A stretch of 64,000 nucleotides of DNA from Thermoanaerobaculia bacterium (lineage in GTDB: Bacteria > Acidobacteriota > Thermoanaerobaculia > Multivoradales > JAGPDF01), in NCBI GenBank assembly GCA_963821905.1, contig CAWGFP010000003.1:683-64682 (forward strand), in the 5' to 3' direction. The notes under the pieces were generated by a model. The model was not told the origin of the DNA and made no database searches. It saw only the letters and a program-made list of their open reading frames with translations. A program made the position numbers and the translations under genes. Of the stretch, positions 1,956-54,221 are shown piece after piece. Every line of letters starts with the position of its first letter. The first letter of the stretch is position 1.

Positions 1956-2120
1956 GGCTGGACTTCGTAGACGGGCAGAGGAGCAGCGGTATCTTGACCA
2001 CCGCGGCGTTCGGCGGCGCCACGAGAGTCACAGCATCGCTACGTCTGCGGGCCACGGATCGCCACGCTGCCTCCATGGCGCTGCGATGGCGGCTGGTCCG
2101 CGACGCGGGCCAAAACGGCG

Positions 2121-3737
2121 ATGGCTCGGCCCGCCGGACCTCCGCCCGCGCGGAAGACCGCCGCCCGCCCATGTCCGCCGGTGCCCGCCGGCGAGCGCCT
2201 GGCGGCGATCGACATCGGCTCGAACTCCATCCACATGGTGGTCGTCGAGCGTGCGCGCCGGCGGCGGCTACCGCGTGCTCGACCGCGAGCGCGACATGGT
2301 GCGCCTGGGACGCAGCGGCCTCGGCCGCGGGCGCGCTCTCCGAGGGCGCCATGCGACGACGGCCTGGTGGCGCTGCCAAGATGACCACCCTGGCCCGGCT
2401 CAAGGGGGCCGACGCGCATAGTGGCGGTGGCGACCAGCGCCGTGCGCGAAGCCGGCCAACGGCGACGATTTCCTCGCCCGGGTCAGGGCCCGGACCGGGC
2501 TCGAGGTTCGCAGCTCCTCGACCGGCGTCGAGGAGGGCCGGCTGATCTACCGCGCGGTGCGCGAGGCGGTGGACCTCGGACGCCGGGCGGCCGCTCATCG
2601 TCGATGTCGGCGGCGGCTCGCACGGAGTGGATCGCCACCCGCGCCGGCGAGCTCGGGCAGGTGGTGAGCCTGACCCTCGGCTCGCTGCGCTGCGCCGGCA
2701 GATCTCGAGGGCGACCCGCCCGCGGCGCGCTCGCTCGACGCGCTGCGGCGACGCATCCGGCGCATCGGCTGCGCGGGTTCGCGCCGCGCGCGCCCGCTCG
2801 ATCGAGCTCGTGGCCACCTCCGGCACCGCGGTGTGCGTGCGCCGACCTGATCGATCACTTCGGCGGCCGCGACTGGAAGTCGCGCGGCGGCGTGCTGCGC
2901 GAGGTGCGCAAGCGCGACCTACGGCTCTCGTTCGAGCGGCTCGCCGCGTTCAACCGCCGCCAGCTCGCCGGCTGCCGCCGGTCGGCGGCCCGCGCTCCGA
3001 ATCGATCCTCGCCGGCGCCGTCCTGCTCGAGGAGCTGGTGCGCCACGCGGGCGTGGAGCGCTTCGCGGTTTCCGATCGCGCCCTGCGCGAAGGCCTGGTG
3101 CTCGCGGCCATGGCAGCCGACCCGTCGATCGCGCACCCGCCGACGTGCGCGGCCGCCAGGTCCGCCAGCTCGCCGAGCGCTCGCCCAGCGTGCTGCTGCA
3201 CGCCGAGCAGACCGCCCGGCTGGCGCTGCGGCTGTTCGACATCACGCCCTCGCTCCACGGCCTGGGACCGCGTGAGCGCGAATGGCTGGAGCACGCCGCC
3301 CTGCTCCACGACGTCGGCTACGCAGTCGACTACGAGCGCCACCACAAGCACGGCTACTACCTGATCACCAACGCCGCGCTCGACGCCTTCGATCCGCGAG
3401 AGATCGAGGTCATCGCCCACGTCGTGCGCTACCACCGCGGCGCGCGCCCTCTTCGCGACACGCCTCGTTCGCGCTGCTGCGCGGCTGGCAGCGGCGCACG
3501 GTCGAGGCGCTGGCGGCTCTCCTGCGCCTGGCCGACGCGCTCGACCGCAGCCACGCCAGGCGGGTCGAGGAGATCTACTGCGCGATCCGCAGGAAGCGGG
3601 TACGCATCGAAGTCGTCTCGCCCTGGGACGTAACGCTCGAGCTCGACACCGCGCGCTCGCGCAGCGACCTCTTCGAGCGCGTCTTCGACCGCAAGGTGGA
3701 GGTTCGCCAGGGCCTGCGCGAGGCGAAAGCCAAATAG
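2121..3737 (+). CDS. ppx: Ppx/GppA exopolyphosphatase with C-terminal HD domain (multiple indels)
   Basis: [80 protein letters not shown]. Confidence 0.92.
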
Positions 3738-9785: not shown

Positions 9786-12094
9786 CACAGCTCGCGCGTA
9801 CCGCTCGCGCAGCCGCTGGCGCACCAGCTCGGCCGCGGTGTTGACCACGAAGGTCAGCGACGAAGAGGAGCAGCGCGGCGAGGAACAGCGTGCGGTAGAG
9901 CGTGCCGCCGTGCGGCGCCTCGGGGATCTCGACCGCGATGTTGGCCGACAGGGTGCGGAAGCCGTTGAACGGGTTCCAGTCCATGATCGGCGTGTTGCCG
10001 GTCGCCATGAGCACGATCATGGTCTCGCCGACCGCGCGGCCGAAGCCGATCATGATCGCCGAGAAGATGCCCGGGCTGGCGGTCGGCAGCACCACCCGGG
10101 TCACCGTCTGCCAGCGGTTGGCGCCGAGCGCGAGCGAGCCGGCGACCAGGTTGCGCGGCACGTTCGAGAAGGCGTCCTCGGCGATGGCGAAGATGATCGG
10201 GATCACGGCGAAGCCCATCGCCAGGCCGACCACGACGGCGTTGCGCTGGTCGTAGGCGCAGGCCGGTCGCCTCGCAGCAGCCAGGCCTGGAAGTTGCCGC
10301 CGAAGGCGAGCCGCTCGAAGCGCGGGCGAGAGCTGCGAGGCAGAGCCAGATGCCGAGCGCCAGCACGACGACGAAGAGGAACGACCTCGGTGCCGGCCGG
10401 GAAGCGGCCGCGGAAGCGCGCGCGGCAGCCGGTGCCACAGGCCAGCCGGCGACGAGCACAGCGAGCGGCAGCACGACCAGCATCAGGACGCAGCGCCGGG
10501 AACGCCCGCTCGATGCGCGGCGCCAGCCAGAGCCCGGCGAGGAAGCCGAGCACCACGCTGGGCAGCGCCGCCATGATCTCGACCGTCGGCTTGACGACGC
10601 GCTTGTAGGCCGGGTGCATGAACTGCGAGGCGTACATCGCGCCGAGGACGCCGAGCGGGATGGCGAGCAGCAGCGAGTAGAAGGTCCCCTTGAGCGTGCC
10701 GACGAGCAGCGGCGTCAGCGCGAGCTTGGGCTCGAAGTCGTCGGTGCCGCCGGTCGACTGCCAGACGTAGCTCGGGCTCGTCGTAGCCCTCGTACCAGAC
10801 CTTGCCGAAGAGCGCCGCCAGGAGACCTCGGGATGCGGGTTGTCGATCGTCGAGCTCGGCCAGCCTGACCGCTCGCCGGCGAGCATAGGCGCCGTCGCCC
10901 TTGGGCGAATAGAGCAAGGCGCCGTGGCTCCGGGCAGCGGCGACTGGCCCGCTCCACAGCGGTGCGCTCGGAGGTCGAGTAGTAGAGCCCGAGCTCGCCG
11001 CCCTGCGTCGTGCGGCCAGGAAGCCCTTGTTGCGCACCGACGGCGCGAGCAGGCGGATGGCGCCGCGAGTGGCGGGCGAAGTCGCGGACCCGGGTCAGGC
11101 GTGACGTCGTCCTCGTCCCGTCGCGCACCGGGAACCAGACGCGACAGCGCGCCGTCGTCCTGGCCGACGACCAGCGAGCGGCCGCCGATCAGCAAGGTCA
11201 GGGCGGTGACCGCGGCGCCGCCGGCGGAAGCGACCGCGCGGCTGCGCCGGGCTCGCCGTCGACGAGCGGCCACCAGCAGGAGCTCGCCGCTGGCGGTGCC
11301 GCCGAAGAGGTGCGCGCCGATCGCGGTCGATCACCAGGGCGGTCAGCGGTCGGCGTCGGCGCGGACTCGACTCGCGCGTCGACGATCTCGCGTCGTCTCG
11401 CCGGTCATCGCGTTCTCGCTCGACTCGGCGCGTCGACCACGCGCGAGCGTGCCGTCCGGCGAGCTGCGCCGCGGCGCGGCCGCCGCGCCGTCGGTGCTGG
11501 CCCGAGCGGCCGAAGGCGCCGACCGCGCGGCCGTTCGGGATCGAGCTCGAGCACGACCGGCTCGCCGAGCCGCGGCGCTCGACCTGCGCGCGTCGGCGCC
11601 GTCGAACGTGACGTCGAAGGCGACCGGTGACCAGCGACGACGCGGCCGTCGGCGGTGGCGCGCGGCGAGAGCCGGCGACCGCCGGCGGCGCTGCGCGCGC
11701 CAGTCGGAGCGGCGCGGCCGCCGCGTCGGCGTCGGCGAGCGAGCGCGGCTGCTCGCAGTCTCGGCCGTCGGCCAGCGCACGGCACGCACCAGCCCGTCGC
11801 CGCCAGGGCGCCGACGTGGCTGCGGTGCTCGTCGACCGAGCAAGCGCCGTCGGCGCGGCCGGGCAGCGGCATCGCGCCGGCGCCGGCGACACGCGCGCCG
11901 GCGCGTCAGCGGGCAGCACCTCGGCGACGATGAAGACAGGATGCCCAGGATGCTGGCGATGATCGCCAGCCGCCCGCGGTGACGAGCCAGCGCGCCGCGC
12001 GGTCGAGCGACCAGGCGCCGGCGGCGGCGACGTCGGTGCGGCGCGCGGCCGCGCCGGTCGGCGGGCTCGAGCTGTCGCTGGAGCCGTGCTCCAC
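9785..12094 (-). CDS. pstC: Phosphate ABC transporter permease PstC, long form with large N-terminal (probably beta-propeller) domain; start approximate, many indels
   Basis: NPHPEVS, KVWYEGY, YVWQSTGGTDDFEPKL, KPTVEIMAALPSVVLGF, GFGRAVGETMIVLMATGNTP, RTLSANIAVEIPEAP. Confidence 0.88.
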
Positions 12095-46816: not shown

Positions 46817-47932
46817 ATGGACTCGAGCCAGGAGAGGCAGGTCTACCGCTTCCTCTTCTTCATCGCCGCCATCCTCGCCGTCGGCTACCTCGTCTTCCGG
46901 GTGCTCCAGCCGTTCTTCGCCGCGCTCGCTTGGGCGGTGGTCCTGGCCATCGTCTTTCACCGTCCCTGGCAGGCGCTGGACCGCCGGATGCCGCGGCGGC
47001 GAGCCCTCGCCGCGGGGCTCCTCACCCTGGCAATCGCGATCGTCGTGCTGCTCCCCGCCTCGCTGTTCGTGGGCGTGCTGACCGCGCAGGCCGTCGAGAC
47101 CGCCGACGACGTCGTGGTGGGTCTGCGCAGCCGCCACATCGCCACGTTCTCGGATCTCGTCGCCTCGCCGGCGGCGGCGCCGCTGCTCGAGGCGCTCGAC
47201 CAACGGTTGGGCGTGTCCTCCGATCGCTTTCAGCAGTTCGCCTCGACCTTCGTGGAGCGGGTCACGGGTTTCCTCGGCTCGTTGAGCGGGCTCCTGGTCC
47301 TGAGCCTGTTCGATGCCGTGCTCACGTTCGCGGCGACGCTGTTCCTGCTTTTCTTCTTCTTCTTCGACGGTGATCGGATCAGCGCGGGAGCGCTCGACCT
47401 GCTGCCGGCCGACGAAGAGGGACGCCAGGAAGTGAAGCGCTCGCTCGGCACCATGGTGCGCGCCATCTTCCGTGGCTCGTTGCTGCTCGCCCTGGTGCAA
47501 GGCCTCTCCGGCGGCCTCAGCTGGTGGCTTGCGGGACTCGGATCGCCGGTGCTCGCGGGCGCGAGCATGGCCGTGCTTTCTCTCCTTCCGCTCGGCGGCT
47601 CCGCGATCGTCTGGCTGCCGGGGAGCATCTGGGCCTGGTATTCGGGCCACCCCGGCGCCGCCGCATTTCTCTTCCTTTGGGGAGCGCTGGTGACCTCGTT
47701 CCTGGCCGACAACGTCCTGCGGCCACTGCTCATCCGCGGCGCCGAGGGCTTGAGCGCCCTGGTCGTTTTCCTCGGCGTCTTCGGCGGCCTCGCGACGTTC
47801 GGCCTGCTAGGCGTCTTCATCGGTCCGATGGCGCTGGTGGTCGGCCTGACGCTGCTCGACGCGATGCGCCGGCGGGCCAGCGCCGGTCACTATGAACGGA
47901 TCGAACAGCCGCCAGAGCCCTTGGTCACGTGA
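46817..47932 (+). CDS. AI-2E family transporter
   Basis: LFFFFFDG, ALVQG, LPLGGSAIVWLP, DNVLRPLL, GVFGGLATFGLLGVFIGP. Confidence 0.9.
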   Translation: MDSSQERQVYRFLFFIAAILAVGYLVFRVLQPFFAALAWAVVLAIVFHRPWQALDRRMPRRRALAAGLLTLAIAIVVLLPASLFVGVLTAQAVETADDVVVGLRSRHIATFSDLVASPAAAPLLEALDQRLGVSSDRFQQFASTFVERVTGFLGSLSGLLVLSLFDAVLTFAATLFLLFFFFFDGDRISAGALDLLPADEEGRQEVKRSLGTMVRAIFRGSLLLALVQGLSGGLSWWLAGLGSPVLAGASMAVLSLLPLGGSAIVWLPGSIWAWYSGHPGAAAFLFLWGALVTSFLADNVLRPLLIRGAEGLSALVVFLGVFGGLATFGLLGVFIGPMALVVGLTLLDAMRRRASAGHYERIEQPPEPLVT

Positions 47933-49597
47933 GAATGCGACGGAAGGCAGCCACCGGCCGCGCCGCCGCAGCCACCGAGCTTCTGGCGGCTGCGCGGGCC
48001 GAGGTGCGGCAGAGCACCAACCAACGGCTCGAGGCCGAGCAGTCCTTTCGCACCTTGGTAGAGAGCCTGCCCGACGTCATCGCGCGCTTCGACCCGCAAG
48101 TGCGATACCTCTACGTCAGTCCCGCAATCCAAGAGGTAGCCGGACGGCCGGCGCGTGACTTCGTGGGCCGGACGAACCGACAAATGGGGATGCCGCCCGA
48201 GCTGATCGAGGAGTGGGACGCGGCCGTGCGCAGGGTCTTCGCAAGCGGACAGCCCGAGAGGCTCGAGGTCAGTTTTCCGACCGCCAATGGACCGCGGCAT
48301 TTCGATTGCCAGTTGGTTCCCGAACCTGGGAAAAATGGCTTGGCGGCGGCGGTGCTGACCGTGGCGCGAGATGTCACCCACCGCTGGCTCGCGCTCGAAG
48401 CCGAACGGCGGGCCCGGAGCGTCGCGGATTCGTTGCGCGAGGCGACGGTGGCGCTCACCCGCAGCCTCGATCGCGAGACCGTGCTGGCGACTCTGCTCGG
48501 CCGCCTGCGCGGCATGCTCCCGTTCGACCGCGCCAGCGTCATGCTGGTCGAGGAGGCGTCGCGGGTCTCCGTGCGCGCGATCTTCGACGGCGAGCGCGTG
48601 GTTTCTCTGCCGGCCGACGGGCGGCCGGAGTTCGACCCCGCCGATCACCCGATCGTGCAAGGGATCCTGACCAATGGCGCGGCGGTTCTCATTCCGGATC
48701 TACGGGCTGATGCCCGACTGGAGCCTGCCGGTCGACCGCTCGTCCGAGGCGAGTTGGATGGGAGTGCCGCTGTTCGCGCGCGGCGACGTGGCAGGGTTGT
48801 TCTCGCTCTCCAAGCGCGAGGCCGGCTATTTCAGCGAGGAGCACGTGAGGCTGGCCGAGGCGATGTCGTCGCAGGCCTCGGTCGCGGTCGAGAACGCGAT
48901 CCTCTTCGAACAGATGCAGGCCTCGACCGTGCGGATGCAGTCGCTCTCGCGCCGCCTCGTCGAGGCGCAGGAAAGCGAGCGGCGCAACATCGCCCGCGAG
49001 CTGCACGACGAGGCCGGTCAGGCACTGGCCTCGCTGCGCTATCGGCCTGCGCCTGCTGGAGACGGGAGATCGGCGAGGGCCGCGGCGTCACCGAACGGGT
49101 GGCCGAGCTCAAGCAGAGGACCGATGCCGTCATCGACGGCCTGCACCGACTGGCCGCGGACCTGCGGCCGGCGAGCCTCGATCACCTGGGGCTCGAGGCG
49201 GCCCTGCGCCAGTACTCGCGCATCGGCGGCGTCCAAGTTCGGCCTCGCCGTCCGCTTCAAGGCCCGCGGGCTGGGCAGCGAGCGGCTTCCTCCGGCGATG
49301 GAGACGGCGCTCTATCGCGTCGTCCAGGAGGCGATGACCAACGTCGTGCGGCACGCGAAGGCGACCCGGGTCGACGTGCTGGTGGAGCGCAGCGACGGCC
49401 GCGTCATGGTGATGGTCGAGGACGACGGAGTCGGCTTCGAGCCCGACCGCGCCCAGCAAGGCGAGCACTTCGGGCTGCTCGGGCTGCGCGAGCGGGCCGA
49501 GGCACTGGGCGGGACGCTGACCCTGGAGAGCGCGCCGGGAGCGGGAACGACGGTCGTGGTGGAGGTGCCGAGTGCCGATCCGCATCCTGATCGCTGA
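47929..49597 (+). CDS. PAS-GAF HisKA_3 (NarX-like) cytoplasmic sensor kinase (indels)
   Basis: ESLPDVIARFD..YVSP (PAS); GAF; AQESERRNIARELHDEAGQAL; QEAMTNVVRHA; DDGVGF; FGLLGLRERA. Confidence 0.88.
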
Positions 49598-50211
49598 CGA
49601 CCACGCCGTCGTCCGTTCCGGCCTGCGCGCGCTGCTCCGAGCCGACCCCGAGCTCGAGGTGGTCGGCGAGGCGGAGGACGGTGAGGAGGCGCTGCGCCTG
49701 GCGGAGGCGCTGCGCCCCGACCTGGTCCTGCTCGACATCACCATGCCGCCCGAGAACGGCATCACGACCGCGCAGCGACTGAAGGCAAAGCATCCCGAGG
49801 TCGCCGTGCTGTTCCTCACCATGCACGAGGACGAGAGCCTGCTGCACGAAGCGCTGCGCGCCGGCGCGGCCGGCTACCTGATCAAGCGGGCCGAGGAGGC
49901 CGAGATCATTCGCGCCATCCATGCTGGCGAGCCAGGGCGACATCTACGTGCACCCCGCGATGACCCGCGCGCTCCTTCGCCAGCCGGTGACCTCCGCGCA
50001 CCGGCGCAGTTCGCCGGTGGACGAGCTGACCCGCCGCGAGCTCGATGTCCTGCGGCTGCTCGCCAAGGGCAACACCAACCGGCAGATCGCCGATCTGCTC
50101 GGCCTCTCGATTCGCACGGTCGAGAACCACCGCGCCAACCTGATGGGCAAGCTCGGGCTGGTCAGCCGGGTCGAGCTGGTGAACTACGCCGAGGAGCACG
50201 ACCTGCTCTAG
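49572..50211 (+). CDS. NarL/LuxR-family response regulator (frameshift ~49925)
   Basis: ILIADDHAVVRSGL, LLDITMP, LTRRELDVL..G.TNRQIA..L.LSIRTVENHRANLMGKL. Confidence 0.92.
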
Positions 50212-50250
50212 GGCTTCCGTGCGCCGGCCGGCGAACGATCTCGCAGCGCG

Positions 50251-50529
50251 TCAGCGCCGCCGGGAGGCCAGATGGATGAGCGCCACGAAAAGGGCGGCGC
50301 CGATGATCGACCACAGAACCGGGAACGGATGCCCGCCGACGGTGATCATGAGCGGCTCGGCTAGCTTCAGCTGCCGCGCGACCCACGGCCCGAGCAGAGC
50401 CCCGACGAAGCCCAAGGCGATCGAGACGAGGAGCCCGCCGCGCGAGCCACCCGCGATGGCCTTCCCGATCGCGCCGCAAACGGCGGCGATCACGATGAGA
50501 ATCAGGAGTGTTGTTAGTGACAGCGTCAT
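50251..50529 (-). CDS. GlsB/YeaQ/YmgE-family membrane protein
   Basis: GLLVSIALGFVGALLG, WSIIGAALFV. Confidence 0.82.
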   Translation of the reverse strand: MTLSLTTLLILIVIAAVCGAIGKAIAGGSRGGLLVSIALGFVGALLGPWVARQLKLAEPLMITVGGHPFPVLWSIIGAALFVALIHLASRRR

Positions 50530-50580
50530 GACAGGTTCCCTCCGCTATGGCTTGGGCAACGTGGCGATCTCCGCGCCAGA

Positions 50581-50760
50581 AATCTAGTCCTCTGGCGACC
50601 CGAGTTGAAGCGCACTTTCTACCCGGAATCAACGCCGCGACTCGGGTAGAAACTACGCCGGCACCGTCGCGCGACGGCGATCGGGTAGTTCCCACCTAGC
50701 TCGCGATCTCGCCATCAGGTAGAAAGTGCGCTTCTCAGACGAGTGCCGGAGGGCTAGCCT
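50581..50760. promoter_or_regulatory. Two divergent copies of a conserved bipartite promoter motif
   Basis: GTAGTT(T/C)C(T/C)ACC(C/T)-N19-(G/A)GGTAGAAAGTGCGCTT-N21-TA(GATT/GCCT) on each strand. Confidence 0.75.
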
Positions 50761-50789
50761 CGAGGTGGCCTCGAAAGGGAGGAAACGTC

Positions 50790-50879
50790 ATGGACAGCAC
50801 CACCCTCATCATCCTGATCCTCGTACTGGTTCTACTGTTTGGCGGCGGTGGCTTGTACTGGCGGCGCGGTCGCCGCTAA
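50790..50879 (+). CDS. 29-aa single-TM small protein
   Basis: GGGAGG RBS; MDSTTLIILILVLVLLFGGGGLYWRRGRR*; has its own copy of the motif; missed by the ORF track. Confidence 0.7.
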   Translation: MDSTTLIILILVLVLLFGGGGLYWRRGRR

Positions 50880-50977
50880 ACCCGCGAGATCGCGATTCGG
50901 ATCGCGGCAGGGCGCGGTGTGGCAGTTCACCAGCGGTTCGCTGGTCCGAGCCGCACTCCGCGCCCTGGGCGCCGGCC

Positions 50978-51355
50978 TCAGGCCGACAACCGCCGTCGGC
51001 GCGCCAGCAAGCCGACCAGGAATCCGGCAGAGGCCGCGAGCAGCAGGGCCTTGCCGGGATTCGCGACGACGTACTCGGTCGTCGCGGTGGCCATTCGCGT
51101 GACCTCGCCGCTTGCCCTCGCGTAGCCGCGATCGACTGCCTGAGCGGCGCGCTCCACGCGCTGGTGCGCGCCGCGCGACGCCGTCTCCGCTCCCTCACGG
51201 ACCTGCGTGCCCGCGCCGCGGACCGTTTCCACCGCGCGCTTCGCCGCCGTCTCGACGCCGCGCTCCGCGCGATCGGCGGCGCCGACAACGGCGTCGCGAG
51301 TGCGGTCGATCAGGGAATCCATTCCGTCCTTCGTCCGTTCGATGTTCTTGATCAT
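50978..51355 (-). CDS. DUF883/ElaB-like protein
   Basis: YVVANPGKALLLAASAGFLVGLLARR; AAGGAG RBS. Confidence 0.8.
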   Translation of the reverse strand: MIKNIERTKDGMDSLIDRTRDAVVGAADRAERGVETAAKRAVETVRGAGTQVREGAETASRGAHQRVERAAQAVDRGYARASGEVTRMATATTEYVVANPGKALLLAASAGFLVGLLARRRRLSA

Positions 51356-52419
51356 GCGCTTGCTCCTTCGGTTCGTGTCATTGGCGATTTGGAGCCCCCA
51401 CGGTCCGTGGGCTTGTACTCCGACAGCTGTACCAATTGCTTGCCTTGGCTTTTTCCCCGTAGCATTGCGATGAAGGCTTGCGGCGCGGCCTCGATGCCCT
51501 GAGCGATGTCCTCGCGGTACTGCAGCTTCCCCTGCCGCAGCCATTCGCGCAGACGCTCGCACGCTTCGGGGAACCGCTGCCGGTAGCTGGCCACCAAGAA
51601 GCCGCGCGCGCTCGCCTGCTTGACCCTCAACTGGTCCAGCCAGCGCGGCGCCATCTCGGGTTGCTCCAGGTTGGACTGTGAGCTCTGACCGCAGACGCAG
51701 ATCCGGGCCCGGTCGTTGATTCTCTCGATGACCGCGTCGGTGATGGCTCCGCCCACATTGTCGAAATAGACGTCGATGCCGGCCGGGCAGAGCGTCTCGA
51801 GCGTCCCGCGCAGGTCCGAGCCGGCCCGATGGTTGAACGCCGCGTCGAAGCCGAGCTCGTCGCGCAACCACGAGGTCTCGGCATCCGAGCCCGCCACTCC
51901 GACGACGCGGCAACCGGCGATCTTGGCCAACTGGCCGGCCACCATCCCGACCGCCCCGGTCGCACCGGAGACCACGACAGTCTCGCCTGGCTCGGGGCGA
52001 CAGATGTCGAACAAGCCGAAGTAGGCGGTCAACCCCGGTGTGCCCAGTACTCCGAGAGCCGTCGACAAGGGCGCCGAGGTGGCGTCGAGCTTCCTCAACT
52101 CCCGCCCCTGGACGACGGCGTACTCCTGCCAGCCCAGCAGGCCTTCGACCGCATCACCGGCCACGAACTGCGGGTCCTCGGATGCCATGACCAGGGCGAC
52201 GGCGCCGCCGATCATGAGATCGCCGATGGCCATCGAGCTGGGGCCCGCGGCGTTCATCCGCCCCCGCATCCAAGGATCCAGGGAGAGGTACAACTCCCGC
52301 ACCAGCACTTCGCCCGCGGCGAGTGAAGGCAAGGGCGAATAGACCAAGTCGAAGTTCGAGACCCTGGGGAAACCTACCGGGCGCGAGGCGAGGGTGATCT
52401 GTCGGTTGACGGTTGCCAC
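51352..52419 (-). CDS. NADP-dependent oxidoreductase (MDR, CurA/PTGR-like)
   Basis: LASRPVG, YLSLDPWMRGRM, LGTPGLTAYFGL, SGATGAVG, CPAGIDVYFDNVGG. Confidence 0.92.
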   Translation of the reverse strand: MATVNRQITLASRPVGFPRVSNFDLVYSPLPSLAAGEVLVRELYLSLDPWMRGRMNAAGPSSMAIGDLMIGGAVALVMASEDPQFVAGDAVEGLLGWQEYAVVQGRELRKLDATSAPLSTALGVLGTPGLTAYFGLFDICRPEPGETVVVSGATGAVGMVAGQLAKIAGCRVVGVAGSDAETSWLRDELGFDAAFNHRAGSDLRGTLETLCPAGIDVYFDNVGGAITDAVIERINDRARICVCGQSSQSNLEQPEMAPRWLDQLRVKQASARGFLVASYRQRFPEACERLREWLRQGKLQYREDIAQGIEAAPQAFIAMLRGKSQGKQLVQLSEYKPTDRGGSKSPMTRTEGASA

Positions 52420-52443
52420 GGCAAGTTCGCGACGCTGCGCCGG

Positions 52444-52662
52444 CTATGCCTTCGAGCGCATCAGGAGCAGTGCCCCTCCGACGACGATCGCGCCGACGCC
52501 TGCCCAAACCGGGATATTGACCGTCTCCTTGTCCTTGACCGACAACTCCAGCGGACCGATCTTGGCGTCGTGAGTCGTCTTGGTGTACGTGAAGCCACCG
52601 TACGCCAGCGCGACGACCCCGGCGACGATCAGCAGAATCGCGACCATCTTGAGACCGCTCAT
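52444..52662 (-). CDS. Small two-TM membrane protein
   Basis: LIVAGVVALAYGGFTYTK..KIGPLEL..KET..IP.WAG; AGGAGGAG RBS. Confidence 0.75.
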   Translation of the reverse strand: MSGLKMVAILLIVAGVVALAYGGFTYTKTTHDAKIGPLELSVKDKETVNIPVWAGVGAIVVGGALLLMRSKA

Positions 52663-52731
52663 TTCGCTCCTCCTGTCATTTCCCCGTCCGCGGCGTCAGG
52701 CCGGCGGAGGTGCCTTCTCGACATGCTCTCG

Positions 52732-52806
52732 AGGTTAGTCCCCGCACCGCCCGCCGAGAAGCGCACTTACTACCCGAGCCCGTCAATGCAACTAGGTAGA
52801 AACCAC
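52732..52806 (-). promoter_or_regulatory. Third copy of the bipartite promoter motif
   Basis: Minus strand GTGGTTTCTACCT-N18-GGGTAGTAAGTGCGCTT-N21-TAACCT. Confidence 0.75.
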
Positions 52807-52925
52807 TGCTACGCCGCGCTTCCCTCAAAAAGATCGAGGCCCGCGGCGCCAGGTGGCGCACGCGGACCTCGACTTGCTCGCCCTCGGCGGTACCGTGAAC
52901 CGGCGCCACCTCGAGGCTTCGCAGC

Positions 52926-53477
52926 TTAGCGTCCGCTCTTGCCGACCTGCAGCTCGTTGTGCACGTCGCTGACGCCCTTGGTGGCGCGCGCGATGCCCTC
53001 GGCGTCGGTCTTGATCCGCTGCGTGCTGACGCGGCCGATCAGGGTCACGACGCCCTTCGACGAGCCGACGTCGATATCGCTGGCTTCGATTCCGGGGTTG
53101 GCGATGAGCTGAGACTTGACCTTCGAGCTGATCATCACGTCATCGACCCACTCGCCGACCGTGCGCTCGCCGACCGTCAGACCGTTCCTCACGCCGCGCA
53201 CGCCTTCCGTGCGCCAAGACACCCGCGCGGCCTCGCGCCGAGATTCCTCGGTGTCGACCACGCCGGTCAGATAAACGACACCCTCGCGGGTCTCGACCTC
53301 CACTTGCCGCGCCTTAACCTTCTCATCCGTCTCCAGCGCTTGCTGAACGACCGAGGTGATGCTCTCGTCCGTCTTCTGCGTGCTCTTCGAAGTCATCGAC
53401 GACGAGGCACACCCCGTGAGGGCGATGATCGCGACACCGATCAGAGTCTTTGTTGCGAAAGCAGATACCTGCTTCAT
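52926..53477 (-). CDS. Dual BON-domain (OsmY-like) lipoprotein
   Basis: Lipobox LTGC; DESITSVV..VETREGVVYLTG; DDVMISSKVK..GVVTLIG. Confidence 0.9.
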   Translation of the reverse strand: MKQVSAFATKTLIGVAIIALTGCASSSMTSKSTQKTDESITSVVQQALETDEKVKARQVEVETREGVVYLTGVVDTEESRREAARVSWRTEGVRGVRNGLTVGERTVGEWVDDVMISSKVKSQLIANPGIEASDIDVGSSKGVVTLIGRVSTQRIKTDAEGIARATKGVSDVHNELQVGKSGR

Positions 53478-53506
53478 GGGATACCGTCCTTTCTGGACAG
53501 GTATCG

Positions 53507-53583
53507 AGCCTAAGCCGCGCCTCCCCGCCCCGAGAAGAGCACTTACTACCCGAGCGCCGAGCGCCGGACTGGGTAGAAACCAC
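53507..53583 (-). promoter_or_regulatory. Fourth copy of the bipartite promoter motif
   Basis: Minus strand GTGGTTTCTACCC-N19-GGGTAGTAAGTGCTCTT-N22-TAGGCT. Confidence 0.75.
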
Positions 53584-53602
53584 CCTGGCAAAGTGGCCTC
53601 GG

Positions 53603-53632
53603 TTGCGGCGATCTTTTCCCTGCGGGTAGAAT
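53603..53632 (+). promoter_or_regulatory. Sigma70 promoter of the tRNA
   Basis: TTGCGG-N18-TAGAAT followed by a GC-rich discriminator. Confidence 0.55.
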
Positions 53633-53652
53633 GCGCGCCCTGCCGTATCGGT

Positions 53653-53728
53653 GGGGCGGTAGCTCAGCTGGGAGAGCACCACGTTCGCAACGTGGGGGTC
53701 GAGGGTTCGAATCCCTTCCGCTCCACCA
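53653..53728 (+). tRNA. tRNA-Ala(CGC)
   Basis: 76-nt cloverleaf GGGGCGG...CCGCTCCA-CCA; G3:U70; anticodon arm CCACG-TTCGCAA-CGTGG; T-loop GTTCGAATC. Confidence 0.97.
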
Positions 53729-53784
53729 ATTTCGATCTCATTCGATTACAACACTCGCCTCTTCTCGAAGACGAGCAGGAGAAG

Positions 53785-54221
53785 ATGCGCGTTATGGTGT
53801 TCCACAAAGTCACCGAGAACAGCGAAAAGAGCATGGCCGCCCCTACGCCCGAGATGCTCGAGGCCTTCGCGGCGATGGATCGGTTCACCGAGGAGCTGGT
53901 CAAAGCCGGCGTCTTCGTGGCCGCCGCCGGCCTCAAGAATGGCGCCCAGGCCAAGCGCATCACCTTCGATGGTGCGGAGGCACGGTCACCGATGGGCCGT
54001 TCGCCGAGACCCGCGAGCTCATCGCCGGCTTCTCGATCTGGGAGGTCAATGACATGGACGAGGCCGTGGCCTGGGCGAAGCGCGCCCCCAATCCCATGCC
54101 GGGCCCGAGCGAGATCGAGATTCAGCCGTTCTACGAGGCGGAGGATCTGGCCGAATTCGTGACTCCCGAGGAGCTCGCGACGCCCCGTGAGGGGACGCGC
54201 GGGAAGCTCGGCGTCGCCTGA
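53785..54221 (+). CDS. YciI/DGPF-domain protein (frameshift ~53980)
   Basis: EELVKAGV..GL, VTDGPFAETRELIAGFSIWEV..MDEAVAWAKRAP. Confidence 0.88.

Follow-up and report, generated by a model that had tools for sequence, protein, structure and literature searches.

A bipartite promoter motif of small envelope and stress genes beside a NarL-family two-component system in Acidobacteriota

Introduction

The Acidobacteriota are abundant in soils and sediments, and the control of their genes is almost unstudied. This article concerns a 64-kb stretch of DNA from a Thermoanaerobaculia bacterium (GenBank assembly GCA_963821905.1, contig CAWGFP010000003.1, positions 683 to 64,682 of the forward strand; hereafter the window, G+C = 68.9%), in which the genes of a sensor kinase and a NarL-family response regulator lie next to four transcription units that are each preceded by a copy of the same bipartite motif. 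An initial annotation, made from the sequence alone, described these copies as activator-dependent promoters of a mini-regulon, proposed that they are the sites of the adjacent regulator, and did not recognise the regulon as a described one. The literature searched likewise contained no description of the motif or the regulon, with motif strings matching only unrelated eukaryotic and viral papers, and a search on Acidobacteriota stress regulons or on LuxR-type regulators of CsbD, BON or GlsB genes returned nothing relevant.

Organisation of the locus

The kinase and regulator genes are followed by a gene for a GlsB-like membrane protein, a small open reading frame (smORF) encoding a hydrophobic peptide of 29 amino acids (aa), an operon of three genes, and a gene for a lipoprotein with two BON domains (Table 1). 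A Pfam search supports the gene calls at all of these target loci as well as those of the PAS-GAF kinase and the NarL-family regulator, and the identities first assigned to them are thereby upheld. GlsB-like orthologues were also found in 13 loci of relatives listed below, and the gene order of the operon is kept in one of them (L058).

The longer of the two conserved elements, the 17-mer GGTAGWAAGTGCKCTTC (box 2), has four exact matches in the window, all of them inside 50.6-53.6 kb, so that four exact copies fall within 3 kb, the first about 400 nt from the regulator gene. No fifth match was found in the 64 kb at up to three mismatches, and 100 dinucleotide-preserving shuffles gave a mean of 0.15 matches and a maximum of 2. 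In each copy the shorter element, GTRGTTYCYACC (box 1), precedes the start of box 2 by 32-33 nt; being short, it is not significant alone, with 36 window matches at up to two mismatches against 20 expected. When the window is searched with a profile made of 65 sites in other genomes, the four window sites come back (E 1e-18 to 2e-12) and no fifth, the only extra matches being reverse-strand echoes of the four. All four copies stand at the positions first described, each complete with box 1 and a TAnnnT hexamer that begins 37-38 nt downstream of the box 2 start.

Conservation among the four copies is limited to the boxes, and the spacers differ. An inverted CTACC/GGTAG repeat between the boxes had been pointed out; it is present, but the description was incomplete, as box 1 is a palindrome by itself (GGTRG-TTY-CYACC). 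Box 2 has the inner half, GGTAG-WAA, in common with box 1, in inverted orientation, and then continues on its promoter side with GTGCKCTTC.

Table 1. Coordinates of the features discussed (window positions unless a locus of a relative is named)
Feature	Position	Strand	Description	Support
Sensor histidine kinase, cytoplasmic	47929..49597	+	PAS_4/GAF/HisKA_3/HATPase_c	Pfam
NarL/FixJ-family response regulator	49572..50211	+	Response_reg + GerE helix-turn-helix	Pfam
Target 1, GlsB-like membrane protein	50251..50529	-	Transgly_assoc, 92 aa	Pfam
-10-like element, target 1	50581..50586	-	TAGATT, 37 nt after box 2 start; predicted transcription start ~50574	
Box 2, target 1	50607..50623	-	GGTAGAAAGTGCGCTTC; last 3 bases open weak -35-like TTCAAC	
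Box 1, target 1	50645..50656	-	GTAGTTTCTACC; palindromic arms GTAG/CTAC	
Box 1, target 2	50685..50696	+	GTAGTTCCCACC; back-to-back with the target 1 promoter	
Box 2, target 2	50718..50734	+	GGTAGAAAGTGCGCTTC	
-10-like element, target 2	50755..50760	+	TAGCCT; predicted transcription start ~50767	
Target 2, smORF	50790..50879	+	Hydrophobic, 29 aa; without Pfam family	
Target 3, three-gene operon	50978..52662	-		
Target 3, DUF883/ElaB-like protein	50978-51355	-		Weak DUF883_C match
Target 3, NADP-type oxidoreductase	51352-52419	-	ADH_N_2/ADH_zinc_N	Pfam
Target 3, membrane protein	52444-52662	-	72 aa	
-10-like element, target 3	52732..52737	-	TAACCT	
Box 2, target 3	52758..52774	-	GGTAGTAAGTGCGCTTC	
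Box 1, target 3	52795..52806	-	GTGGTTTCTACC	
Target 4, lipoprotein	52926..53477	-	Two BON domains, 183 aa	Pfam
-10-like element, target 4	53507..53512	-	TAGGCT, 38 nt after box 2 start	
Box 2, target 4	53534..53550	-	GGTAGTAAGTGCTCTTC	
Box 1, target 4	53572..53583	-	GTGGTTTCTACC	
tRNA-Ala promoter	53603-53632		TTGCGG-N18-TAGAAT, canonical sigma-70 type	
tRNA-Ala(CGC)	53653-53728			Rfam, ARAGORN
ECF sigma gene, L026	1314-1979			
ECF sigma gene, L033	2039-2734	-		
ECF sigma gene, L060	1251-1979			
ECF sigma gene, L036	517-891	-		
ECF sigma gene, L001	3251-4015	-		
ECF sigma-gene remnant, L080	about 2036-2330	-	Adjoining motif promoter intact	

Conservation of the motif in relatives

A scan of reference genomes with the 17-mer listed at least 126 loci (designated by L numbers), 80 of them with flanks of 2 kb and 46 with 300 nt; the window's own genome is not among them, and open reading frames (ORFs) in them were called heuristically from G+C at third codon positions (GC3). 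Together with the four window copies there were 135 distinct listed matches (131 in other loci), of which 81 have box 1, at up to three mismatches, at an offset of -30 to -34 (69 of them at -33). The consensus of these 69 sites reads ggGTAGTTtCTACCta.gtcGcgg....gctcccG-GGTAGaAAGTGCgCTTCccGg...gGacTAg.tT. The 54 listed matches without box 1 were set aside and are mostly single matches in unrelated phyla; eleven of them (L005, L018, L019, L022, L031, L035, L047, L077, L079, L119 and L124) sit in one conserved Bacillaceae coding gene that is unrelated to the motif.

The search in relatives that the initial annotation had proposed, for the motif and for its co-occurrence with the regulator, was carried out in part and gave a positive result, with bipartite sites in at least 42 assemblies other than the window's own. 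Among the 42 listed, 41 are labelled Acidobacteriota, Acidobacteria, Thermoanaerobaculia/-ales/-aceae, Holophagales or Candidatus Sulfomarinibacteraceae, and the remaining one is a 13-kb contig labelled Chondromyces. The sites can be grouped in islands, with L014, L015, L023 and L033 on one contig and L008, L091 and L092 on another.

Variant sites are informative about the nature of the two boxes. In three real sites (L050, L076 and L085) the centre of box 1 is flipped and its arms are kept; the sites of L021 form a variant divergent pair; and in L048 and L058 two full copies of box 2 stand inverted to each other, 20 bp apart, and serve divergent genes. These paired box 2 copies and the flipped centres show that boxes 1 and 2 are the same kind of site, with the promoter-side extension belonging to whichever side has a promoter. 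As the 17-mer pattern forces box 2, sites were also sought by box 1 alone and by profile; the variants so obtained keep GTAG-WAA-sTGCkCTT, and since the extension was not required in those searches, it must be truly conserved.

With an inverted repeat in several copies per genome, the unit might be suspected of being a mobile or structural repeat of the repetitive extragenic palindrome (REP) or miniature inverted-repeat transposable element (MITE) type, or a transcribed RNA hairpin, in either case without a promoter role. However, what varies among the four window copies is the spacers, only the boxes being conserved, and the window holds no further copies; the sites are oriented towards gene starts at a fixed distance (median +74) and carry TAnnnT at a fixed place; and across at least 42 assemblies the motif precedes orthologous and non-orthologous genes alike. 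The arms are conserved in sequence and show no compensatory changes, the only position that varies in both arms being able to pair in 20 of 69 listed sites, and a hairpin between the boxes, in RNA or DNA, was rejected for this lack of covariation. An Rfam scan of the whole window at gathering thresholds found only tRNA-Ala, and hence nothing at the motif. A repeat or hairpin of this kind is therefore extremely improbable, and the scatter irrespective of gene starts by which the initial annotation would have stood refuted is not what is observed. ARAGORN also called a 97-nt 'tRNA-???' with a four-base anticodon at 11687-11783 on the minus strand, which Rfam does not see at gathering thresholds and which is possibly a false positive.

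Core promoter elements

The distance from box 2 to the -10-like element had been described as nearly fixed, and this holds well beyond the window: TAnnnT begins at +36 to +38 from the box 2 start in 71 of the 81 listed sites (58 at +37, 12 at +38 and 1 at +36), compared with 0-4 of 81 at each of eleven other offsets. The commonest -10 hexamers among listed sites are TAGGTT (18) and TAGATT (16), and the best-conserved positions of the element are A2 and T6, in keeping with the TAnnnT rule of housekeeping promoters. The statement that a canonical -35 is absent needs correction, in that a weak -35-like TTCNCN is present, overlapping the last three bases of box 2 and lying 17-18 nt before TAnnnT; in the window it reads TTCAAC, TTCTCA, TTCTCG and TTCTCG, and the commonest hexamers at +14 to +19 of the listed sites are TTCCCG (26) and TTCACG (19). 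The median position of called gene starts is +74, with 57 of 80 inside 130 nt, and many of these starts are preceded by a purine-rich sequence of the GAAAGG type. Because both TAnnnT and the gene starts keep their distance, the motif unit is best read as a promoter with a fixed short leader, the boxes being situated upstream of the core.

A point of reference within the same DNA is given by the tRNA-Ala gene, whose promoter is canonical (Table 1). The organism thus uses canonical sigma-70-type elements, by comparison with which the -35 elements of the targets are weak. A scan of 50150-53800 for the sigma-70 consensus returned no promoters, but it needs 9 of 12 matches, which is above what these weak promoters offer, and is hence uninformative. 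The -10 region of the tRNA-Ala(CGC) promoter (GGGTAGAATGCGC) resembles the start of box 2. Two other sigma factor assignments were tried and rejected. A promoter for a sigma-B/SigF-type factor, with box 1 as its -35 and box 2 as its -10 (GTTT...GGGTA), is ruled out, as the window copies and the consensus alike have 23-24 nt between GTTTCT and GGGTAG, where about 15-19 nt would be needed; a sigma-54 promoter inside box 2 was rejected on inspection for a GG-GC spacing that is one base short.

If transcription is assumed to start about 7 nt after TAnnnT, the proximal site is centred at about -43.5 and the distal palindrome at about -77.5, 34 bp apart; for comparison, activator sites of class II promoters, which abut or overlap the -35, have their centre near -41.5. 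Such an arrangement could also consist of repressor operators, whether for the regulator or for another protein, that keep the stress genes off. Paired sites about three turns apart can support looping repression, and box 2, which shares three bases with the -35-like hexamer, could in principle occlude region 4 of sigma. Both sites, however, lie upstream of the core and overlap neither the -10 nor the predicted start; the core itself is weak in the collected sites, with C in place of the key G of the -35 and a -10 that matches at 3-4 of 6 positions, which suits activation; and DevR activates from the same proximal position (PMC3177182). Repression is accordingly given very little credence.

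Genes preceded by the motif

The four targets of the window turn out to be a small part of what the motif precedes. The term mini-regulon, under which they were first described, undersells the system, as at least 15 gene families follow the motif in relatives. Pfam searches of 75 ORFs downstream of listed sites identified BON (11), Ice_binding-like (4), DUF5670 (3) and CsbD (2) proteins, and one each of DUF892, DUF6600, an ADH_N_2 oxidoreductase, an M48 peptidase with TPR, a CHASE3-PAS sensor, GGDEF, acetate kinase, cytochrome c, RcnB and a DUF202-like orthologue of the 72-aa protein, while most of the remaining ORFs are without a Pfam family. Flanking genes of the listed loci add Transgly_assoc, CsbD, YtxH, dodecin, YflT-like and glycine-zipper proteins. 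Of the members found in relatives, CsbD, DUF5670, DUF6600, DUF892, YtxH and M48 peptidase genes are absent from the window, as are the Ice_binding-like and the 280-aa, 227-aa and 402-aa proteins. CsbD, BON/OsmY-like, GlsB/YmgE-like (Transgly_assoc), ElaB/DUF883-like, DUF892 (YciE/F-like) and YtxH proteins belong to the regulons of sigma-B, sigma-S or EcfG, and in content the set of targets corresponds to a general stress response.

Two targets deserve mention as families in their own right. A hydrophobic peptide of 26-30 aa (M..TTLIIVIVVLVLLFGGGG.YWR.R), to which the smORF at 50790-50879 belongs, was recognised by eye after the motif at 10 listed sites in addition to the window (L001, L013, L036, L044, L048, L057, L058, L086, L087 and L107); it is strongly conserved and among the most frequent targets, and its sole match is a weak one to DUF3309 (E 4e-4). 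A secreted protein of about 280 aa, with a signal peptide followed by ..ELTVNSILAAQ.SGA.. and without a Pfam or NCBIfam family, follows the motif at 8 listed sites (L008, L014, L020, L030, L051, L067, L071 and L090).

A third recurring gene, encoding an extracytoplasmic function (ECF) sigma factor that is SigH-like below the NCBIfam cut-off, has, in several relatives, the kinase operon on one side and a motif promoter on the other, and leads to a different explanation of the motif, according to which GTGCKCTTC(N)CG and TAGNNT are the -35 and -10 of an alternative sigma factor, such as this one, and GGTAG is an accessory site. The gene adjoins motif sites in five listed loci (L001, L026, L033, L036 and L060); its own promoter has a variant of the motif, as autoregulation predicts; and the proximal extension of box 2 is promoter-specific, being found on both sides in L048 and L058. 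Yet the variant deviates exactly in the core elements, with a better -35 (TTGCCG) and a -10 of TACGGT; the -10 of the motif sites obeys the housekeeping TAnnnT rule, whereas ECF sigma factors usually use a -10 of the CGT type; and no sigma factor can make contact with box 1, which is at about -77. The window has no orthologue of the sigma gene, its best match being of 29% identity at 60.6-61.0 kb, and in L080 the motif promoter is intact beside a mere remnant of the gene. Recognition by an alternative sigma factor is thus improbable, and the ECF sigma gene is read as a target of the motif system, which would give a cascade.

The kinase and the regulator

The regulator of the window is split in this assembly, and its two pieces match Response_reg (E 1.9e-30) and GerE (E 3.6e-21); intact orthologues of 212 aa have both domains. 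In the receiver, the acidic pair DD at 9-10 and the aspartate at 55 within LLD(I/L)xMP, which are assigned, as is usual in this family, as the acidic pocket and the phospho-acceptor, are kept in 8 of 8 aligned sequences. Among six orthologues of 82-88% identity the recognition helix, predicted as RTVENHRANLMGKL, varies by no more than two substitutions, and the orthologue of L069, at 57% identity, has a single one (N to S); this agrees with a motif that is itself unchanged. The regulator falls below all 25 NCBIfam equivalog cut-offs shown (best, MctR with 174.2 bits against 300; NarL 156.1 against 250; EvgA 103 against 251), and assignment to any of the named groups NarL, NarP, DevR-like, MctR, MadR, UhpA, EvgA and RcsB fails on these cut-offs. 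The nearest solved structures are about equal, namely NarL (1a04, 5.9e-38), DevR (3c3w, E 1.9e-35) and VraR.

The kinase of the window retains HATPase_c (E 1.3e-18) and a partial HisKA_3 that is broken by a frame switch, and intact orthologues have GAF, HisKA_3 and HATPase_c, with the kinase gene overlapping the start of the regulator gene. The kinases of L029, L033, L060 and L080 have an extra N-terminal GAF (GAF-PAS-GAF-HisKA_3-HATPase), and the shorter PAS-GAF kinase of the window directly follows a gene for an AI-2E family transporter (46817-47932). In L026, L033, L060 and L080 a conserved intergenic block lies between the kinase and ECF sigma genes; it contains TGGTATATT on the kinase strand, which resembles an extended -10 and may be the promoter of the kinase-regulator operon.

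Searches of the listed loci by tblastn with the window proteins found regulator orthologues of 79-89% identity in L013, L014, L025, L028, L044, L049, L050, L059 and L086, a distant one in L069 (52-58% identity to the window pieces), and kinase orthologues in eleven loci (L013, L014, L025, L029, L033, L044, L050, L059, L060, L069 and L080). In 13 of the 48 listed full-flank loci a kinase or regulator orthologue is no more than 2 kb away from a site; these loci belong to 10 of the 31 assemblies with such a locus, and L086, with flanks of 300 nt, adds an eleventh assembly. By our estimate, a site placed at random in a genome of several megabases has a chance of well under 1% of landing no more than 2 kb from a given operon. 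The proposal that the motif is the site of the adjacent NarL-family regulator thus gains support from the neighbourhood of orthologues and sites.

Neighbourhood may nevertheless mislead. The boxes could be bound by a different transcription factor encoded elsewhere, the kinase-regulator pair being a neighbour or a member of a stress-gene island. Where motif genes cluster in islands, any island gene will appear linked to the motif; 35 of the 48 listed full-flank loci have no regulator orthologue within 2 kb; and the proximal half of box 2 is unlike a second GGTAG half-site. No other DNA-binding family, however, recurs comparably in the listed flanks, where GerE-type regulators were found in 7 loci by Pfam and 3 more by tblastn, ECF sigma factors in 5, TetR in 2 and a sigma-54 activator in 1. 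The regulator gene stands directly beside a site even in the distant L069. Compact palindromes of the 5-3-5 kind also fit dimers of GerE-type proteins, as in the layout of the DevR box. A factor encoded elsewhere is thus unlikely, although it is the alternative to which we would give most weight.

A probable activator-dependent regulon

The arrangement as a whole is probably best explained by sigma-70-type, activator-dependent promoters at which the adjacent NarL-family regulator binds both boxes. We infer the regulator as the binding protein, activation as its effect, the start positions and the signal, along the following lines. The cytoplasmic PAS-GAF kinase would feed the neighbouring NarL/FixJ regulator by phosphorylation, and the phosphorylated regulator would most likely bind both sites as dimers at four weak housekeeping-type (sigma-70/sigma-A) promoters that require an activator, each with a -10 of the TAGNNT type and a poor -35 (TTCNCN). 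The proximal site, GGTAG-WAA-GTGCKC, immediately upstream of this core, would recruit RNA polymerase in a class II-like manner, and the distal palindromic site, GGTRG-TTY-CYACC, inverted relative to the proximal one and at a nearly fixed distance from it, would add cooperativity. The system appears to be conserved in Acidobacteriota of the Thermoanaerobaculia and Holophagales types, where it would drive small envelope and stress proteins like those of general stress responses and, in some genomes, the ECF sigma gene too.

Several observations weigh against this reading. Every position relative to +1 depends on the assumed start, and the distance between the site centres amounts to 3.2 helical turns, an inexact multiple, so that the phase is approximate; the boxes of DevR have their centres 21 bp apart instead of 34. 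The GTGCKCTTC half of box 2 mismatches the palindromic partner expected of a simple dimer site and, being conserved and non-palindromic, may be the contact of another protein or of sigma. The 35 full-flank loci that lack a nearby regulator orthologue, where the gene may be absent or more distant, and the five in which an ECF sigma gene adjoins the motif, both described above, count on the same side, and the counts in relatives are those of a sample, not a census, 46 of the loci having only the shorter flanks. In this assembly, moreover, the kinase gene has frame switches near 48710, 49050 and 49230, and the regulator gene, compared with three orthologues, contains one extra nucleotide near 49925, which splits it into two frames, while the six target genes neighbouring the pair are intact. 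If the switches are real, the system is inactive in this genome, and the pair may be in decay. A crude GC3 frame-plot, however, suggests about nine same-strand frame switches across the window in which the upstream frame has no stop codon, so that indel errors of the assembly are the simpler reading. Such switches are flagged, for example, near 3450, 7400, 24850, 29000, 37900, 41600, 48700, 49900 and 53950, and the small gene after tRNA-Ala (53785-54220) changes frame near 53960.

Taken together, the evidence supports an activator-dependent two-component regulon of the NarL family that is conserved in a lineage little studied so far. As most bacteria of these classes are uncultured, a searchable promoter signature tied to a sensor-regulator pair provides a regulon definition for dozens of metagenome-assembled genomes. 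It also gives a functional context to the 26-30 aa peptide, the ~280-aa secreted protein, DUF5670, DUF6600 and the 72-aa membrane protein, and makes the kinase-regulator pair a candidate for the master control of stress or dormancy physiology in the lineage. A bolder view, which we offer tentatively and hold to be possible rather than probable, is that the pair and the bipartite box form the general stress master switch of these Thermoanaerobaculia- and Holophagales-type bacteria, with the ECF sigma factor one tier below and the 26-30 aa peptide as a core output; if that is true, a two-component activator does the job that sigma-B, sigma-S or EcfG does in other phyla. On this view the unusual arrangement of two inverted sites 34 bp apart, with the fixed extension GTGCKCTTC on the promoter-side one, might come from an oligomer of the regulator by which some 45 bp of DNA are bent against RNA polymerase. 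One purified protein and four short pieces of DNA would suffice to test the reading of the motif directly.

Comparison with known systems

In function the nearest analogue is DevR/DosR with DosS/DosT of Mycobacterium tuberculosis, with which OsdR/OsdK of Streptomyces can be grouped (PMC5069765). DevR depends on two or more boxes in helical phase, of which the proximal lies at -42.5, and has boxes common to divergent promoters (PMC3177182), and the DosR dimer contacts region 4 of sigma-A and alpha subunit domains (PMC13486717). In both systems a regulator of the NarL family would be paired with a soluble HisKA_3 kinase that contains GAF; the regulon, one of stress or dormancy, would consist mostly of small proteins; and the boxes would be palindromic, at least two per promoter with the proximal one next to a weak -35, and would also serve divergent promoters. 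The differences, besides the spacing of the boxes, are considerable. The box described here is GGTAG-N3-CTACC, whereas the Dev box is G/C-rich, and the proximal copy here has the conserved non-palindromic extension GTGCKCTTC; the sensor has PAS and GAF domains (GAF-PAS-GAF in relatives) instead of GAF-GAF; the targets are BON, CsbD, GlsB-like and DUF883-like proteins and the 26-30 aa peptide, in a different phylum; and by sequence the regulator is no closer to DevR than to NarL or VraR.

NarL, NarP and EvgA of Enterobacteria belong to the same family, with Response_reg and GerE domains, and NarL is the best match among solved structures. Their half-sites have a TAC/GTA core in inverted repeats. 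The inverted half-sites described here, however, are separated by 20 bp, against 2 bp in theirs; the regulon has no relation to nitrate or acid resistance; and the NCBIfam cut-offs are missed widely. In gene content, the regulon overlaps the general stress regulons of sigma-B in Firmicutes, sigma-S in Proteobacteria and EcfG/PhyR in Alphaproteobacteria through the CsbD, BON/OsmY-like, GlsB/YmgE-like, ElaB/DUF883-like, DUF892 and YtxH families; in contrast to all three, control would apparently be exerted by a two-component activator at housekeeping-type promoters, with no alternative sigma factor.

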